From positions 1-64,000 of the forward strand of contig JBFMDN010000012.1 in NCBI GenBank assembly GCA_040753915.1: a stretch of 64,000 bases of DNA, written 5' to 3'. Made by a program: the position numbers and the translations under genes. The stretch comes from Thermodesulfobacteriota bacterium (lineage in GTDB: Bacteria; Desulfobacterota; Desulfomonilia; Desulfomonilales; Desulfomonilaceae). The notes under the pieces were generated by a model. The model had not been told where the DNA came from. It worked only from the letters and a program-made list of their open reading frames with translations, and ran no database searches. Positions 11,255 to 30,507 of the stretch are shown in pieces (within the stretch, counting starts at the first letter, position 1; every line of letters begins with the position of its first letter).

Positions 11255-11566
11255 GACGTATCCTCCCTCTTGAGGCCTGCAATGAACCGGAGAGCTCGGA
11301 TCAAGCGGCTCTGAAGCCCGACCTTCCCTCAAGGCCAGCTCAAAACAAGAATGCCGGCGAGACGCCGGCGCTGCGCATATTCGTGCCGAGATCCCCGTAG
11401 TAGGGTGCCAGCCCTGCCCTTACTTGAAGATGGTCGCCTTTGCTATCATTCTCAGCGTGGGGCACTGCAATGAGGTAGACAGCGTTGCCTTCATTACGAA
11501 ACGACGGTCTCGGGACAGAAGTCTGAGAGCGGACCGAGCTCACGGGAGTTGCTCGGAGGTCTCTCC

Positions 11567-20913: not shown

Positions 20914-23538
20914 TCACCCGTAAAAGTATATGCCAATGGCTTTGATCAGGATCACTGACAATGTCACGACAACTGCAGCGTGCGAGACAAAGCCGATCAT
21001 TACTTTCCGCGGCGAATCACTGCTGTTGCGGCTGAGACGGTAAATGACCATCAAGCTGAGAACCAGACCTGCAAGGATCACTATCACTTGCGCAGCGTGG
21101 GTGATCGATGGCGAGATCTCTATGGCAACGGCTCGAAAGATCTCGAAGCCGAAGGTTTGCCAGGCCAGCTTCGGCAACTGGGTACCGAGGTGCACCAGAT
21201 AGTACGAATGGAACGCAAGGTACGCAGCTAGGGTGAGAGGAAGGAGCGCCAGACCGAAGCGCGCAAAATTGTCTCGAAAGCCGTCCCCGAAAACGCGGCG
21301 CGAGACCAACGATGCCGCGGCTGTTCCCCCATTGACGCCGAGCACGAGCAGTAGGAAGGTAACGGTAATTCGAGCCGTTTCTCCTAGCGGAAGGTGCGAG
21401 CTCACGTCCGCGTACCACGCCATTCTGACCATCATTTCGCTGAGGAGGCCACCGATCAGCCCGAGGACCAGAAAAGCCGTGCCCGCTCTGGGATTGCGAA
21501 TCTCCCAGATTTCACGGCCGGGCATCCTCAGATTAAGCGTGATGGCATCGTGCGGACAGTTCTTGATGCATTGTGCACATAGGTTGCACCAGCGGTTGCT
21601 ATGGAGTCTGGGACCGGCGTTCCCGAAGGGGCAGCCGTCGTCGGAGTCGGTTCCTACGTAGCACTCGTTCGTCGAACACTGAGAGATACACACATTGCGA
21701 TTTGCCCGCAATTCAATGAGCGAGGTCTTGGCAAGAATGCCGATCATCCCGCCAAGTCCGCAAAGATGCTGGCACCACGACTTGCGCTCGTACACTATTG
21801 CCACGAGTATTGCGGAGGCGAGCATGGCCAAAAGGAGCAGCCCCAGAATAACCGGCGAGCTTCGTATGTCCGTCACGGTCTCGAACCAGATAATAAAGAG
21901 AACCGCTCCTGCCACCACAAAATCACTGTGGAGCTTAAAGAAATCGGGAAACGGTTTACCGAGGTTCACCACGCGTTTTGCCAAATTGCTCATCGTCCCT
22001 ATGGGACAAATCGCGCACCAGGACCGTGCGCCGAGAAATGCTCCGAACATCAGCAAAGGCCACCCCAGGGCCCAACTTATCAGGGAGGCCGGGTTCTTCA
22101 AGGGGTCCGACGGGCCGAAGAACAGTACGGCCAACATAATGACGAAGAAGGGAGCAACAGCACTTTGGAGAATGGCGGGGAACAAAGGGCTTCGAACAGC
22201 CTGCTGCACGGGCTTGAATTGGAGCAGATTGAGCTTACCTTTTCCTTCAAACTTCTTGAGGTCAAATGAGATGTCTTCCGGCCGTAGCACGCCTCCGTGG
22301 GATACGAGGATGGCACGCTTCAGGGTAGTGGCCAGCTCCATGTCATTTCCCGGCCAACGGTAGTTCACAAGGATTTTCAAGGTTTCTTTGGGTAGCTCGG
22401 CCACCGGACGTCGCAGCTCCTGGCAATATTTGGACAGGTAATGGGTGACAAGGCCGGGGATTTCCCTGCGTCTTGTTCTCAGGGGGGGAATGGTGATTGC
22501 CCAATCCAGAAAGGAGTACAGCAAGGGGTGGTCCTCAACCGTAATCTCGGAGGCTTCCAATCGAGTCGTAGCGATGACGCGAACTTTCCCCTTCCTTGAG
22601 CGTACTCCTCCTGACCGACGAAACGTCCCTGTGACAAGAGCTTCGAGAAGCTTCAATTGCATTACGCGAGTAAGCTTGTCCACACCGCGAATCAGCAGGG
22701 TACCGCCTTCCGTCAGATCGAAGTATCCGGGTGACTCCTTCACCCCTCCATCGGGAGCCTGCTCTTCGGCTCCGAAAAAGAGCTCAACCTGCTTTCGAGT
22801 ACGACTCTCCTCGTCCACAGGGATTCCCTCCGGGGATACTCCATCGTTACCACCTATATCCACTCTGAGAAGATCGACCTGGAGGAACACCTCCTTGCCG
22901 TGATGGCTCATTCCGTAGAGGGAATGTGCGATCCCTTCTTTTCCCACACCGGGCTCCCCGATAATCAACACCGGGCAGTCCGAGGTAGCCAATTCCTCGA
23001 CGCGAGCGGTGACCCGCTTTCGGATGTAATCCCCCATGAAGAAGTCCGGGAACACGTGCTCTTGTCGACTTATCATGTCCTGGAGGGCTCGGCGCTTCAT
23101 CTTCGTCTCGAAGATGGTCTGATGCAAACGGATTATCTTGCGCCCGAGACTCGTTACCAACGGAATCGTGAATTCCGGCCCCTGCCTAAGAAGATTCTCG
23201 AAATCCGCGGGGGCTATCTCGATGACCGTGCAAGGTTCCTCTGCCACTACCAGCGAGCTCGAAGGCCATGGACCGCCTATGAAGAAGCTCACCTCAGCGA
23301 AAATGTCCCCCGACCTCAATTCATCGACGATCATTTTCTCGTCGCCTTCGCATAAAACTAGGCTAGCCCTCCCCGAGACGATATAGGTAACGTGATCTCC
23401 CCTGTTACCCGGCCCAACGATGTAATCACCGGTGTGGTACTCTCGAGGAACGACTTTGTCCCTCAGGATCTCTCGGATTGGCTCAGGGAATCGGTCGAGA
23501 GATCTGCCAATGGTCCCGGTGGGGGACAGCTTCCACAT
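20914..23538 (-). CDS. cNMP-binding plus sigma54-activator-like AAA (degenerate) fused to NapH/NosR-type polyferredoxin membrane domain
   Basis: One continuous ORF. Walker A is 'GEPGVGKE'. The NtrC-type 'ELFGHEKGAFTGA' is replaced by 'ELFFGAEEQAPDG', and 'GGTLFLDEI' by 'GGTLLIRGV'. 'NYRWPGNDMEL' is retained. About 450 aa of TM helices follow, with 'SWCAICPIGT' and 'CISQCSTNEC...CNLCAQCIKNCPHD'. Confidence 0.7.
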   Translation of the reverse strand: MWKLSPTGTIGRSLDRFPEPIREILRDKVVPREYHTGDYIVGPGNRGDHVTYIVSGRASLVLCEGDEKMIVDELRSGDIFAEVSFFIGGPWPSSSLVVAEEPCTVIEIAPADFENLLRQGPEFTIPLVTSLGRKIIRLHQTIFETKMKRRALQDMISRQEHVFPDFFMGDYIRKRVTARVEELATSDCPVLIIGEPGVGKEGIAHSLYGMSHHGKEVFLQVDLLRVDIGGNDGVSPEGIPVDEESRTRKQVELFFGAEEQAPDGGVKESPGYFDLTEGGTLLIRGVDKLTRVMQLKLLEALVTGTFRRSGGVRSRKGKVRVIATTRLEASEITVEDHPLLYSFLDWAITIPPLRTRRREIPGLVTHYLSKYCQELRRPVAELPKETLKILVNYRWPGNDMELATTLKRAILVSHGGVLRPEDISFDLKKFEGKGKLNLLQFKPVQQAVRSPLFPAILQSAVAPFFVIMLAVLFFGPSDPLKNPASLISWALGWPLLMFGAFLGARSWCAICPIGTMSNLAKRVVNLGKPFPDFFKLHSDFVVAGAVLFIIWFETVTDIRSSPVILGLLLLAMLASAILVAIVYERKSWCQHLCGLGGMIGILAKTSLIELRANRNVCISQCSTNECYVGTDSDDGCPFGNAGPRLHSNRWCNLCAQCIKNCPHDAITLNLRMPGREIWEIRNPRAGTAFLVLGLIGGLLSEMMVRMAWYADVSSHLPLGETARITVTFLLLVLGVNGGTAAASLVSRRVFGDGFRDNFARFGLALLPLTLAAYLAFHSYYLVHLGTQLPKLAWQTFGFEIFRAVAIEISPSITHAAQVIVILAGLVLSLMVIYRLSRNSSDSPRKVMIGFVSHAAVVVTLSVILIKAIGIYFYG

Positions 23539-23977
23539 GACCGACATCCTCCCTTCTTTTCCCGCACGGGAGCGTAACGCTCTCTCAAGACTTTTACAGG
23601 AATAATTGGTGGTCGGCAATATGATGGGCCTGCCATTTCTCCAGTTCAGCGCGGCGCTCTCAGTCTATGGCTGCGCAACTTGCAGGTGCAAGCCGGAGAC
23701 AATTCTTTGAAGCTCTTTCACGATTGTGCGTCTCCCCCCTCGATGAACCCTGATCTGACCGTCCCGCAAGGCCAATCCGCGAGCAGCCACCGTAGTATAG
23801 GGAGGAAGAATGGTCGACTGTTTCAACCGTGCAGCGAGACTTTGAGCGGAACGTCTACCCGGAGGACGAATGGTTACGCGTGGTTTCGCATTTCCGTTGA
23901 CCCGTGCGACCGCCCACTGTAGAATTGGTTAGTCTACGCTCTCTTTTGATTCTAATTGACGCATTACGTGGGGGGCC

Positions 23978-25231
23978 TTGCTCATGATGGGGCAGGACGA
24001 ATATGGATGCGATCCTCGCGAGGAAACCTCGCAATTGAAGAGAATCGTGTCCGAGCTTGCCGCTGTCAGAGTGCAGCGCGATCGCGCCATGGAGGCGCTG
24101 CGAGGGAGCGAAGGAAGGGCACAGGCACTCCTGGACGCCGCATCTGACGCAGCAACCCTCGTACGAGCTGATGGAACCATACTGGCAGCCAATGAGGTCT
24201 CTGCGCGGGCATTCGGGCTCCCTCTCGATGCCATCATCGGTCGCAATATGTTCGACCTGTATCCTGTCGAGCTCGCCCAAGCACGAAGGACACGGATCGC
24301 TGAAGTGGTTAAATCAGGAGGTCCTGTGCGGTTTGTCGAAGGATGCAGTGAAACCTATGAAGAAATCTTGCTGCATCCCATTCGCGAGGGCGTGGGGCGC
24401 GTCGAGAAGATTGCAGTGTTCTGCAGGGACATAACCAGCCAGGTCCTCACCGAAATCGAGCTCCGTAAAGCAAAAGAAGCCGCCGAGACTGCGGACGTCG
24501 CCAAAAGCCGCTTCCTGGCAAATATGAGTCACGAGCTCCGAACCCCCCTTAATGCCATCATAGGGTTTTCCGAGATTCTTCAAGATGAGCTCTACGGTCC
24601 TCTTACCGACCAGCAAGTCAAGTACGTGGCATATGTGCGGGAGAGCGGGTACCATTTGCTTAGCGTTATCAATGAGATCCTCGATCTGGCAAAGATTGAG
24701 TCAGGTACAATGGATCTCGATTTTTCCGAGGTGTACCTGGCCGATGTCCTGGAAGCCGCCCTCGCCACAGTCAGCGACAAGGCCAAGAGAAATGACATTG
24801 GGCTCGAGGTCGGAATAGATGAATCCTTGAGCAGCATTCCCATTCTGGCGGACGTAACAAAGCTCAAACAGATCCTCTTCAACCTCCTCTCGAATGCCGT
24901 CAAGTTTGCCGCGCCGGGAGGAAACGTGACGCTTACGGCCCAAAGGAATGGAGAGCAATTGAAAATGAGCGTCTCGGACACGGGAATAGGATTGAGGCCT
25001 CAAGACTTGGAGCGCATCTTCGCTCCGTTCGAGCAGTTGGATGGCTCCTACAATAGACGAAGGGGAGGAACCGGACTGGGCCTGGCCCTGACAAAGAATC
25101 TGGTTGAGCTGCACGGGGGTCGGGTCTGGGCGGATAGCGAAGGACTCGGCAAAGGAAGCACCTTCACCGTTGTCATTCCTCTCCCGAAGGAATCGGTTTC
25201 TTTGTTCACTCCCGCAATTGATAGTCCCTAA
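23978..25231 (+). CDS. Cytoplasmic PAS sensor histidine kinase
   Basis: A PAS region, the H-box '[12 protein letters not shown]', and HATPase motifs 'DTGIGL...GGTGLGLAL'. Confidence 0.85.
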
Positions 25232-25238
25232 GCAATAG

Positions 25239-25604
25239 GATTTCATAAGTACGGTTACGTATTCTGCCACGACTCAGTCGGGGATTTGCGCTCTGAAGGA
25301 GCGCACCTTGAGTAGCCACAGGTTTCAACCTGTGGTTCGGCACGGCACAACCACCAACCGACCCTGAAAGGGTCGACCAAGAGGATTCTCATCGCCAGGT
25401 ATAGGAACCGATCATGAATGAGCCTTGGTTCTCCTGCACTTACATGGTGGACCCCGTCAGGGTCCCCCCTTGTCGGTTTTTTCCTTCCGTGGGTTGAACC
25501 CCACGGCTACTCATGGTATGCCCCTTCGGGGCATGAAGCAATCAATGATCACCATCATTCCTCTTCTTAATAACCCTGAGATACGTAACCGTACTTATGA
25601 AATC
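25239..25604. repeat. MITE-like 366-bp palindromic element with perfect 24-bp terminal inverted repeats
   Basis: 25239-25262 GATTTCATAAGTACGGTTACGTAT is the exact reverse complement of 25581-25604. Mirrored internal hairpins are present (CCACAGGtttcaaCCTGTGG and CCGTGGGttgaaCCCACGG). It fills the intergenic gap between the HK stop (25231) and the truB stop (25650). Confidence 0.6.
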
Positions 25605-25649
25605 GTGTACTAAGCGACCAACGCGTCAGTCAGATCCGTTACCGACGTA

Positions 25650-26594
25650 TCACCCGTTCCCCAGCGTATTAAATACACGGACAGGCTGAACGAGGACATC
25701 CGCGCCCCGCGGCTCACATCGCACGAGGATCACGAGCTTTCCCCTTTCAGAAACAATTTTGAATAGTTGCGACTGTCGAGCAGCCGCCTCGCCGAATCTG
25801 TGCAATACTGACTTCGGAAGGGAGACAGACGCTCCCCGAAGAATTCTCCGTAGCTCCGGGCCAGGAATCTGAAAGTCCTGAATATGGGACAAAGCATTCA
25901 CCACGCTGATCAGGTTTCTCGCTATCGCATCGCGACCGTCCGCGGAGATGTCCTCCACCGTGATAGCGTCGTCCACCAAGAAAGTGCCCGAAGCCAGTCT
26001 TCTGAGCCGATCTAGTCGCCCCCCCACCCCGAGATCGGCCCCGATGTCTCTGGCCAGGGACCTGGCATAGGTCCCTTTGGAACAGATCATTTCCAAATCG
26101 ACGTACGGTGGATCCCAACCCGTAACCTCAAGAGAGAAGATCTCCACCTTGCGCGGCTCCAACTCCGGGAATACTCCCCGACGTGCCAGCTTGTACAGGG
26201 GCACCCCATCTCTCTTGATCGCGGAAAAGTGTGGAGGCACCTGGTCGATCACCCCTCGGTAGGCTCCAAGCACCTGCTCCACGTGCCTTCTGGTTATTCC
26301 GGAAGGATCGCCCGTCCGTATCACGACGCCTTCGCTATCATCGGTATCGGTCTGCTCGCCCAGTTTTACCGTAAGCCTGTAGGTCTTCTTCGCTTCGTCC
26401 AGGTAATCGAGCGATCTCGTTGCCGAGCCAATCAATATCACGATCAAGCCCGTAGCAGCGGGGTCGAGAGTTCCCGTGTGTCCCACTTTGTCCGGTTTCA
26501 CCAGACGCTTGACGAGCCGGACCACATCGTTCGATGTCATGTGCTCTGGTTTGTCGACTAAGAGTATTCCGTGCATGTTCTCTTTCTTTGGCAC
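25650..26594 (-). CDS. truB: tRNA pseudouridine(55) synthase
   Basis: 'HGILLVDKPEHMTSNDVV...GHTGTLDPAATGL' is the canonical TruB catalytic region, and a PUA-like C-terminus is present. Confidence 0.9.
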   Translation of the reverse strand: MPKKENMHGILLVDKPEHMTSNDVVRLVKRLVKPDKVGHTGTLDPAATGLIVILIGSATRSLDYLDEAKKTYRLTVKLGEQTDTDDSEGVVIRTGDPSGITRRHVEQVLGAYRGVIDQVPPHFSAIKRDGVPLYKLARRGVFPELEPRKVEIFSLEVTGWDPPYVDLEMICSKGTYARSLARDIGADLGVGGRLDRLRRLASGTFLVDDAITVEDISADGRDAIARNLISVVNALSHIQDFQIPGPELRRILRGASVSLPKSVLHRFGEAAARQSQLFKIVSERGKLVILVRCEPRGADVLVQPVRVFNTLGNG

Positions 26595-26795
26595 CGGGCT
26601 CTCACGATTCCGTGCACAGCCCAGTTCATGGCAATTGCTGCAACAAAAGTTTCGATCTGGTCCGAAACAACGTGGCTAAGGATCGCTTTTGAGCAAACCG
26701 CTCGCCGCTGGTCCGGAGGATGGCAATCCTCCCCTCCCGATCCGGCGGGGGGCTCATGAGCCTTTGCACGTGCACCGCCATGATCAAACAAGGCA

Positions 26796-27860
26796 TTAGA
26801 ATTGAGGCAAGTTTGGCCAGTATCGCCGGTGAGCCCCGACCACGTCCCGAAGTCGGTTAGCAAAAGAAGGGACCAAGTCCTCGAACGAAGCTTCCATGGG
26901 CACGGACTCGTTGTTCGGATCATACTGGGACAAGCAAGAAATGACTCGGTTCGCTGAATTGCGAAGGGCATCGAGGTTATACCCGCCTTCGAGCGTCATG
27001 ATCAATCGCTCCGAGCAATGGTTTGCTGCCATATGCTGAAGCATCTGGGTCATAAGCTCATACCCGTCCTCGGTCAGCCTCATCCCGCCGAGGGGATCCG
27101 AGTAATGAGCATCGAAGCCTGCAGAGACTAGGATGAGATCAGGCTTGAACGCTTCCATAATGGGGGCAACCACCATATGAAAAACGGTCAAGTATTCTGC
27201 ATCCCCGGCTCCTCCGGCCAGGGGGATGTTGACCGTATAGCCTTCTCCCTCGGCTTTGCCCACTTCCGCGATCCTGCCGGTTCCCGGGTAATGCGGGAAT
27301 TGATGCGCGGAGAAAAATAGAACCTGATTTGTCTCGTAAAACGCGTTTTGGGTCCCGTTCCCGTGATGCAAGTCCCAGTCGACAACCGCCACGCGGCGCA
27401 TGCCGTGGACTCGCAAGGCGTACCGCGCTGCCAATGCGATATTGTTGAACAAACAGAATCCCATAGCACGTCTGTACTCGGCATGATGGCCGGGAGGCCG
27501 AACCATTGCAAAACCGTTCCGCACTGTTCCGCCGACCACAGCGTCTACCAGGTTGAAGAGGCCTCCCACCGCCTTAGAGGCAGCTTCCCACGAATACGCG
27601 CATGTGGAGGTATCCGGATCCAGGTACGTGTGGGGCCGGTTGGCAGTTGCCGCAATCTGTTCCACATAGCGACGGTCATGATTCATTGAGATCTCTTCAA
27701 TCGTGGCCATGCGTGCAGGGATGTCCACCAAATTGAGCCGAGTTCGCTCCTGTTCCAGCATCTCGTAAATAACATTGAGCCGTTCGGGGCTTTCCGGGTG
27801 AAAACTCCCCATTTCGTGCTGGAGATAAATCGAGTCTGTGATAATACCGGTAGGTTTCAT
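26796..27860 (-). CDS. Histone deacetylase-family protein (AcuC/acetylpolyamine amidohydrolase-like)
   Basis: 'HHGNG', 'GFC..N' and 'DWDLHHGNGTQ' arginase/deacetylase-fold motifs are present. The start was chosen at an ATG with a GAAGG RBS. Confidence 0.8.
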   Translation of the reverse strand: MKPTGIITDSIYLQHEMGSFHPESPERLNVIYEMLEQERTRLNLVDIPARMATIEEISMNHDRRYVEQIAATANRPHTYLDPDTSTCAYSWEAASKAVGGLFNLVDAVVGGTVRNGFAMVRPPGHHAEYRRAMGFCLFNNIALAARYALRVHGMRRVAVVDWDLHHGNGTQNAFYETNQVLFFSAHQFPHYPGTGRIAEVGKAEGEGYTVNIPLAGGAGDAEYLTVFHMVVAPIMEAFKPDLILVSAGFDAHYSDPLGGMRLTEDGYELMTQMLQHMAANHCSERLIMTLEGGYNLDALRNSANRVISCLSQYDPNNESVPMEASFEDLVPSFANRLRDVVGAHRRYWPNLPQF

Positions 27861-28893: not shown

Positions 28894-29230
28894 TCGCTGA
28901 CGGTTGCAGCAGTGGCAGAATTCGGTACGCTGCTGCTGAAAGCTGCATAGGTTGGCAGGCACGTCAGTATGACAATCGCTTAAGACATTACCAAAAGTAC
29001 TATGAGCTCCCCGCGTGTCGAGGACATTTATGGGAGGATTACAGACCGGTGGGACGGGCATCTCGCCGTCATTGTCGAACCGGAGAAACGGACATAATTA
29101 TTGGCAACCACTATGACACACGAACACCGGCGAGATGCCGGCGCTACGGGAGAATCGTGACGACCTCCCTGCGGTCAGGACCGGTCACTAACCTGCCCTT
29201 CCCTGAACAGGGATGAAGTAAGTCCGCGAC

Positions 29231-29420
29231 CTTATTCATGAAACGGTGTACTAAGTGGTCGACGGCACAAATACGGTACCGTATCTGCACCGCGGTGTAC
29301 ATGGTGAACGCATCGTTGGCACTGTAGGGGCGGGCCTCGTGCCCGCCCTGGGCACCCATATGAGGTGCCCCTACGTCGTGGCAGATTACGTGACCGTATT
29401 TAGGAAATGGAGCACTAAGT
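29231..29420. repeat. Second, shorter palindromic element related to the 25.2-kb MITE-like repeat
   Basis: The boxes 'CTTATTCATGAAACGGTGTACTAAG' and 'GGAAATGGAGCACTAAG' flank an element with the palindrome ATACGGTACCGTAT (29271-29284) and GC hairpins. The arms 'TACGGTACCGTATCTGCACC' and 'GTCGTGGCAGATTACGTGACCGTAT' resemble the 24-bp TIR of the first element. Confidence 0.5.
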
Positions 29421-30310
29421 TACGCTCGAACACCGAAGAGATCGTTCGCATTGCTGCCGAGTATCCGCTCGAGCACCGCATCAGACAGCCCTAGCTTGCT
29501 CAGGTTTTTCAACTCTCGATCCCAGGCATAGGGAATATTAGGGAAGTCCGTTCCATACATTACACGATCCGGCCGAATCTCCCAGAGCGATGGTATGTCA
29601 GTCACCGGCAAGTAGTCAGCGAGAATCATTGCCGTGTCCACCCACAGATTGTCGTACCGTTCCAGCATATGTTTGTACGAGCCGAACTCGTCTGCCCCCA
29701 GATGAGGCACGCACACTCGCAGCCGAGGATAATCTCTCAGCACAGGTTCCAGCTTGTCGGCCCTGCACGTGGTGTAAGGATCCTCAACATACTCAACGTA
29801 CGGGTTGCGCGGTTCACGCCCCACGTGCATGACCAGGGGCTTGTCGAACGCCTGGCACGTGGCGTAGATCTCGTGCATCGCCGCGGTATCCATGAAAAAC
29901 CCCTGCACGTGCGCGTGCAATTTCACGCCCGCCAGACCGGACTTGAATGCTTCCTCCAGAATGGCTGAAGCTCCTTCTTCTCCAGGAAAGACCGTTGCCG
30001 TACCGATCACTCGGGGATTATCCCGGCACACCGCGGCCATATATGCGTTCAGATGTCTGGCGAGGCCCGGTCTGTGGGCATAGTGTAGAGCCACGATGCG
30101 CTCCACACCTCTGGACAAGAGAAACTCAACGATAGAGGAAGAGGGAATCCTGTACCTGATTGACCAGGCAAAGCGGTCAAACCAGCTCCAGATTGCTTGA
30201 AACAGATTGTCGGGGAAAAGATGAACGTGCGCGTCCACCACAGGTGGCAGTCCCTCCGGAATGCGATCGGATTCCGGATCGTCCATGGAATGCAGTGGAA
30301 AAGTGAGCAT
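29420..30310 (-). CDS. Amidohydrolase-2 (TIM-barrel metal-dependent hydrolase) family protein
   Basis: 'VVDAHVHLFP', 'HLGADEFGS' and 'GTDFPN' motifs are present. Confidence 0.6.
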   Translation of the reverse strand: MLTFPLHSMDDPESDRIPEGLPPVVDAHVHLFPDNLFQAIWSWFDRFAWSIRYRIPSSSIVEFLLSRGVERIVALHYAHRPGLARHLNAYMAAVCRDNPRVIGTATVFPGEEGASAILEEAFKSGLAGVKLHAHVQGFFMDTAAMHEIYATCQAFDKPLVMHVGREPRNPYVEYVEDPYTTCRADKLEPVLRDYPRLRVCVPHLGADEFGSYKHMLERYDNLWVDTAMILADYLPVTDIPSLWEIRPDRVMYGTDFPNIPYAWDRELKNLSKLGLSDAVLERILGSNANDLFGVRA

Positions 30311-30507
30311 CTTGAATTCGCCCCTGGAAATGCAAAACCTCCGGGACCCCATCGCTTATCCCGGAGGTTTCTGAGCTCTGATCGCACCGGGGGGAGGAGC
30401 GACAGCGCTCATTTACATCTTATACATTCTTAGTAACAAGGCAACCCCATTTCGCGGCTTTTCCCAATTACCCCGCCCTCCACTCGGTAACAAGGATTCG
30501 GCTCAGA

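Follow-up and report, generated by a model that had tools for sequence, protein, structure and literature searches.

A 379-bp palindromic element (E1), situated between a histidine kinase gene and truB in the window (the whole 64,000-nucleotide stretch of DNA analysed here), is very probably a non-autonomous mobile element, or MITE, which would carry only the terminal inverted repeats (TIRs) of an IS630-family insertion sequence. E1 is small and non-coding, is bounded by TIRs and a target-site duplication, is found in multiple genomic contexts and has ends in common with an autonomous element. The occupancy of its site differs between close relatives, and the exact empty site was not recovered in the metagenome collection. 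Positions of the element, its parts, its neighbours and two further MITEs of the window are given in Table 1; loci fetched for comparison carry L numbers.

Table 1. Coordinates of E1, its parts, the adjoining genes and the other MITEs of the window.
Feature	Position	Strand	Size	Remarks
Full MITE (E1 type)	25232-25610		379 bp	Non-coding
Left TIR core	25239-25262	+	24 nt	Perfect; matches the ends of transposase-bearing elements
Right TIR core	25581-25604	-	24 nt	Perfect
Left-half hairpins	H1 25288-25304; H2 25316-25335; H3 25359-25375			
Right-half hairpins	H3' 25449-25465; H2' 25487-25506; H1' 25518-25534			Inverted counterparts of H3, H2 and H1
Left target-site duplication (TAA)	25229-25231			Kinase stop codon; inside CTAAG 25228-25232
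Right target-site duplication (TAA)	25611-25613			Inside CTAAG 25610-25614
Histidine kinase (PAS/HisKA/HATPase_c)	23978-25231	+		5' neighbour of E1
truB	25650-26594	-		Convergent with the kinase
Second MITE (E2 type)	29255-29415		161 bp	TAA at 29252-29254 and 29416-29418
Decayed third MITE type (E3)	29114-29251			Right end 29223-29251; left limit approximate

Limits and internal structure of the element

The TIR cores of E1 are exact reverse complements with the sequence GATTTCATAAGTACGGTTACGTAT. When up to three mismatches were allowed, the core was found at these two sites only in the 64-kb window, with 0 occurrences expected from 100 shuffles, so that the perfect 24-bp inverted repeat reported in a first-pass annotation is confirmed. 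It is presumed to be the transposase binding site and forms part of a TIR of ~31 bp in all. The same annotation described a 366-bp element; the palindrome stands, but its extent had to be revised to the full 379 bp. These limits were set by a profile of the flanks, in which conservation is gone beyond C(-11), and find further support in the six-copy alignment and in the homology to two relatives (L107/L108), which breaks at 25610/25611. The imperfect inverted repeat that had been seen to continue outward from the core is indeed present, and corresponds to the true terminus of 7–8 nt plus the TAA/TAA target duplication.

The interior is two-fold symmetric, with arms of 41 nt (25290–25330 and 25492–25532) that are 76% complementary and inner arms of 20 nt (25360–25379 and 25445–25464) that are 85% complementary. 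The left half is 60% identical to the right half once the latter is reverse-complemented. The mirrored internal hairpins of the first description are borne out by these arms and by three hairpin pairs (H1/H1', H2/H2' and H3/H3'), in which the loops and linkers are alike, e.g. ACCTTGAGTAGCC and ACCATGAGTAGCC, and the stems are unlike in sequence, yet base-paired. All six hairpins are GC-rich, and inverted halves with hairpins of this kind are cargo typical of bacterial MITEs. The only open reading frames overlapping E1 are mechanical ones of 45–62 aa, and the original statement that it has no coding capacity holds because indels between copies break them.

E1 was also said to fill the intergenic space between kinase and truB exactly. 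It does not, since the left TAA doubles as the kinase stop codon and 36 nt (25614–25649) remain between the right TAA and the truB stop codon. The kinase reading frame is unaltered by the duplication, and E1 now lies within the 3' region common to the two convergent genes. Also near E1 is a regulator gene (20914–23619) with cNMP-binding, sigma-54 AAA+ activator and 4Fe-4S (Fer4_5) domains; its listed TTG start is probably upstream of the true start, and the homology of relatives begins at a ribosome-binding site and ATG at ~23565. A search of the 64-kb window for tRNA and tmRNA genes returned none.

Target site and duplication

Oriented in the same direction, ends of this kind share C-T-W-A-G-T-R-C-N-N-N-ATTTCATAAATACGGTNACGTA-T, and beyond the outer C the sequence is random. 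At one common offset, 87 of the 124 detected ends have CTAAG (48) or CTTAG (39). Over all loci there were 40 two-ended elements in which a duplication could be looked for, 15 of them off register or degenerate and 25 scorable. TWA was concordant on both sides in 21 of the latter and discordant in four, an outcome for which our binomial estimate of the chance probability is ~5e-4.

A duplication of TA accompanied by one extra terminal base was considered and rejected, as it predicts one fixed W for each element orientation. Copies of the 379-bp type in a single orientation have TAA/TAA in the window and in two other loci (L019, L033) and TTA/TTA in a third (L005), and both triplets also occur among copies of the 161-bp type. 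Since TAA and TTA are found within one type and one orientation, the duplication includes the W. It would thus be TWA (3 bp) or, formally, CTWAG (5 bp), both of which fit the sequences alike.

Whichever strand is read, the target pentamer includes a stop codon, TAA for CTAAG and TAG for CTTAG. Reading frames of at least 100 codons stop inside CTWAG at 12 of 81 ends, as compared to 13 of 162 control frames. This is only suggestive of an association between such ends and the stop codons of genes, of which the kinase of the window is one case.

Transposase-bearing partners and spread of the ends

The ends are far from restricted to the window. A scan with the motif TACGTNACCGTANTTANGAAAT over one genome per prokaryotic species found them on at least 94 contigs in many phyla, with ~4 chance matches expected by our own estimate (19 fixed bases, 1.2e12 positions). 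Among the matches listed are Acidobacteriota, Chloroflexota, Planctomycetota, WOR-3, Hydrogenedentota, Armatimonadota, Bacillota, Rhodothermales, Alpha- and Deltaproteobacteria, Thermodesulfobacteriota and others, and within these same matches the motif is frequently multi-copy per genome and frequently located at contig termini.

Eight elements with these ends, 1256–1278 bp long between the duplications (L007, L011, L050, L055, L061, L064, L080 and L086), carry a transposase encoded by two successive ORFs, HTH first and DDE second, with the Pfam domains HTH_29 (PF13551) and DDE_3 (PF13358). Their transposases score 118–120 bits against the NCBIfam model NF033545 ('IS630 family transposase'), above its cutoff of 100, and together with the two Pfam domains this gives them the HTH and DDE transposase characteristic of IS630. 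Members of the IS630 family are 1.0–1.4 kb long and have terminal inverted repeats (ISfinder), a description that the partners fit in both length and TIRs. Insertion at TA with duplication of TA, another IS630 trait, is not what their flanks show; these fit TWA in CTWAG. The cultured bacterium Polaromonas sp. JS666 has a ninth partner on its plasmid 2, annotated as IS630 family and with a TAA/TAA flank.

The junction of the HTH and DDE ORFs contains a conserved TTTT(T)CCCCCC run in all eight full-length partners (L055:3895–3915 and equivalents). With the DDE ORF in the +1 frame, F-P/S-P is read in both frames at this T4-5C6 run, which looks like a candidate site of programmed recoding or transcriptional slippage.

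No transposase of the partner clade was found in the 64-kb window by tblastn, and none was seen on the fetched contigs of CAYZET, a MAG labelled 'Syntrophaceae' that holds several copies of the element.

Copies of E1 and other miniature elements in the window

Six full copies of the E1 type are known including that of the window, the other five being 82–94% identical to it and all in unrelated flanks. BLAST with the interior, without the ends, recovered copies at 94% (L019), 84% (L005) and 82% identity (L033) and a shortened one (L004), all from CAYZET, and a search with an interior 23-mer added two copies from JGI metagenomes (L100, L101) and a fragment (L102). Mean column identity in the six-copy alignment is 88%, with indels in the hairpins. 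In CAYZET, the closest genome, the ends themselves are present on at least 13 contigs. When the fetched loci were compared to the window, the MITEs were the sole shared sequence, with no orthologous flanks.

The BLAST comparison of the E1 region with the window also revealed the same end sequence at ~29229–29420, where a second MITE, E2, was subsequently delimited. Its terminal repeats are good on one side (29387–29408) and degenerate on the other (29262–29283), and it adjoins the stop codon of an amidohydrolase gene (29420–30352, minus strand). E2 is 95% identical to two other loci (L008 and L066) over 166–168 nt. In one relative (L107:81–102, ~92% identical) a MITE end likewise stands beside the amidohydrolase stop codon, with an interior unlike that of 29255–29415 in a comparison that took in L104:188–334, making this a second locus whose occupant varies between relatives.

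The CTAAG into which E2 went forms the end of E3, which is older and decayed, and one TAA (29252–29254) is common to both. Similar end-to-end arrangements are found in three other loci (L045, L071 and L079), and they indicate that a resident copy recreates target sites at its own termini. A hairpin module rich in GC, (C)GCCGGCGAGA(C/T)GCCGGCG, is found in E3 (29114–29207) and in a 215-bp MITE of the CAYZET relative described below; it is also weakly recognisable at 11345–11489 of the window (68% over 156 nt), without recognisable terminal repeats. The E3 interior as such is 74% similar to that 215-bp element.

The same site in related genomes

One relative (L104, 99.5% identical) has E1 at the same site. 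In the CAYZET MAG, where the flanking genes are 94–95% identical to those of the window (L110), the site contains a different MITE of 215 bp with decayed ends (L110:4985–5199), placed exactly where E1 is in the window, and the same is true of a second locus (L111:3297–3511). The junctions of the 215-bp MITE are as in the window (...GGTCGC-TTA-G...TTA-GGGACTATC); the TTA duplication is the same as at E1, and so is the unusual outermost CAATAGG. Because decay at nine of 22 end positions cannot be accommodated within 5% genome divergence, we infer that the interior of one of the two was replaced in place after a shared insertion.

Two more distant relatives (L107/L108, ~92–94% identical) are without E1 and also without the entire kinase gene. 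Their homology to the window stops at GGTCGC-T(G/T)A-G, which is the outer edge of E1, and picks up again where the sigma-54 activator has its ribosome-binding site. In place of positions 23566–25610 of the window they have a 147-bp palindromic element (L107:3968–4114 and L108:2551–2697) with inverted ends of ~30 bp, GCGAGGGGTCAGGTCTTGTTT, which is unrelated to E1 and absent from the window. In a still more divergent genome (L099, TruB 69% identical) kinase and truB are convergent with a spacer of 155 bp that has none of these ends. No clean empty site was found among the relatives compared, those lacking E1 (L107/L108) lacking the neighbouring kinase too, and an exact search of the metagenome collection for the predicted empty junction TTGATAGTCCCTAAGCGACCAACG (...GATAGTCCC-TAA-GCGACCAACG...) gave no match. 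One short-read contig with an identical truB breaks off inside the terminal repeat of E1.

The suggestion of a mobile MITE made in the first-pass annotation is upheld by the IS630-type ends, the target duplication, the copies in unrelated flanks and a locus that differs between relatives. Of the copies and empty sites that it proposed to look for, diverged copies were found in metagenomes as well as in a sister genome, and the exact empty junction was not found in the metagenome collection. E1 is not the single-copy, positionally fixed element that had been named as speaking against mobility, as it has multiple copies and a polymorphic locus.

Alternative explanations

The most ambitious reading of these data, for which we see an outside chance, would have the ends define a trans-phylum IS630 clade that strictly inserts at CTWAG with a 3-nt duplication, its MITEs being overwritten in place by other types through recombination at their shared ends, as E1 and the 215-bp MITE suggest for one insertion site, and their hairpins possibly being selected, for example as two-way terminators.

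A related and, in our view, still less likely proposal is that E1 arose as a MITE and was later recruited to serve the convergent kinase and truB genes as a bidirectional terminator or insulator. Without E1 the two stop codons would be only ~36 nt apart, and the six GC-rich hairpins would suit such a role. A terminator-like site is present on the plus strand (25458–25472, followed by TCGGTTTTTT), but one such match is at the chance level (shuffle mean 0.7 in the promoter and terminator scan), its T-run is not kept among the copies, and the minus strand has no terminator-like site for truB. The presence of two different MITEs in the same spacer of close relatives could reflect tolerance of spacer DNA as much as a need for it. 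MITEs and BIMEs are known to be able to attenuate or stabilise transcripts (PMC3049150), and E1, if transcribed by read-through, would according to the folding predictions fold tightly.

Decay in place can be considered very improbable. Under this explanation a full-length insertion sequence would have been reduced by internal deletion to an immobile relic that never moved as a miniature. The absence of the partner transposase from the window and an insertion at the kinase/truB site older than the split from CAYZET would both agree with it. However, the interior of E1 has no similarity to the full-length elements, its BLAST matches being other miniature copies only, and at no fewer than six loci, unrelated to one another, the 379-bp type has a separate TWA duplication; the miniature form itself has therefore moved or been copied. 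The copies share no flanking DNA either, hence they are not segmental duplications.

Least probable of all is the large structured non-coding RNA, or 3'-UTR attenuator or stabiliser, raised in the first-pass annotation, in which selection would act on the fold and the terminal helix would close a multi-hairpin domain. Both strands are predicted to fold into very stable structures (-165.9 and -170.8 kcal/mol, z = -9.0 and -8.0), but equal stability of the two strands says little for an RNA because any DNA palindrome gives that. The hairpins of both halves have been retained despite their different stem sequences, and compensatory changes occur among the copies at 4 pairs. Against this, searches of Rfam gave no relevant match, either at a relaxed E-value in the region 24000–27000 or at the gathering score over the whole 64-kb window, and RNAalifold applied to the six copies gave a covariation term of +3.15, which is unfavourable. 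For an explicit structure consisting of the terminal helix and six hairpins, 94% of the cells pair in the six copies, but the covariation measures were reached by 46–54 of 500 shuffles; E1 has therefore neither the Rfam match nor the significant covariation by which a structured RNA is recognised. In four of the six copies the 24-bp terminal helix is mismatched at two positions without compensation, a pattern that fits two protein-binding sites drifting independently and not an RNA helix. The unrelated gene contexts of the copies and the different sequence at the orthologous site of a ~95% identical relative also argue against it, and the RNA interpretation is left without support.

Comparison with known systems

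IS630 and ISY100, from the bacterial branch of IS630/Tc1/mariner, resemble the partners of E1 in their HTH and DDE_3 transposase and in their TIRs, the partners being ~1.27 kb. The insertion of IS630 at CTAG, beside C...G around a short palindromic TA core, is also as at the ends of E1. There are two differences. The canonical duplication of IS630 and ISY100 is the dinucleotide TA (PMC2170065), unlike the flanks of the E1 type, which indicate TWA in CTWAG, and the partner transposase differs from that of IS630/ISY100 in being split into two frames at T4-5C6. For the first there is a precedent, as ISDrpg7/8, IS630-family elements of Deinococcus radiopugnans, are reported to have 3-nt direct repeats (TGA/TAA/TCA) (PMC10017437), and the 3-nt duplication of the E1 clade is therefore a known variant. 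The likeness lies in the reported repeats; the terminal repeat of ISDrpg7/8 is TACGGACTCCGATTAA, unlike the ends of E1, and their duplications are T-N-A, as opposed to the A or T that alone occupies the central base at E1-type ends.

The closest named analogue of E1 is RUP (repeat unit of pneumococcus), a 107-bp MITE of Streptococcus pneumoniae proposed to be moved by IS630-Spn1 (PMC3049150). Like E1, RUP is small, non-coding, highly folded and intergenic, with TIRs resembling those of an IS630-family element that would act in trans (PMC3049150). It differs in its length (107 bp vs 379 bp) and in its unrelated sequence, and the interior of E1 is two-fold symmetric and hairpin-rich.

Two other bacterial MITEs have TIRs like E1, lie between direct repeats and are predicted to fold stably: Nezha from cyanobacteria, for which empty and filled sites are both described (PMC3184786), and Chunjie from Geobacter uraniireducens, with many size variants (PMC10969869). 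Both were rejected as relatives of E1 because their direct repeats of 10 bp (Nezha) and 9 bp (Chunjie) assign them to other transposase families (PMC6042816). In the literature searched, the terminal repeat sequence of E1 was not found, and nothing pertinent turned up on IS630 elements with CTAAG or TWA.

A model for insertion and turnover at the site

By analogy to ISY100/Tc1-mariner chemistry, which is the source of the binding, excision and insertion steps proposed here (PMC2170065), the HTH–DDE transposase of a ~1.27-kb partner, supplied in trans, would bind the ~30-bp ends through its HTH domains. Double-strand cuts would then excise E1 in a cut-and-paste fashion, and the element would insert at a C-TWA-G pentamer, where a staggered cut of the target, once repaired, would account for the duplication of the central TWA that the flanks show. 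The target used here was the CTAAG that holds the TAA stop codon of the kinase. Insertion at the kinase/truB site probably took place before this lineage and its nearest sequenced relative diverged, and the interior would afterwards have been exchanged, TIR to TIR, for another type of the same MITE superfamily, with recombination or conversion between copies as the likely route.

Biological significance

E1 is an ordinary mobile repeat and not a regulatory RNA; its sequence type is new and its kind is known, and the current understanding of transposition or regulation is unchanged by it. Recognising E1, E2 and E3 as MITEs explains the conspicuous palindrome together with two more repeats of the window, and repeats of this sort also account for the points at which short-read assemblies of this organism are interrupted. 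The stop codon inside the target pentamer fits a harmless placement at the ends of genes, as seen at the kinase. For other genomes, the signature C-TWA-G·TRC NNN ATTTCATAAATACGGTNACGTA recognises both the IS630 clade and many unrelated-looking MITEs in MAGs of multiple phyla. The presence of two MITEs at one site in close relatives provides a natural experiment on the turnover of such repeats.
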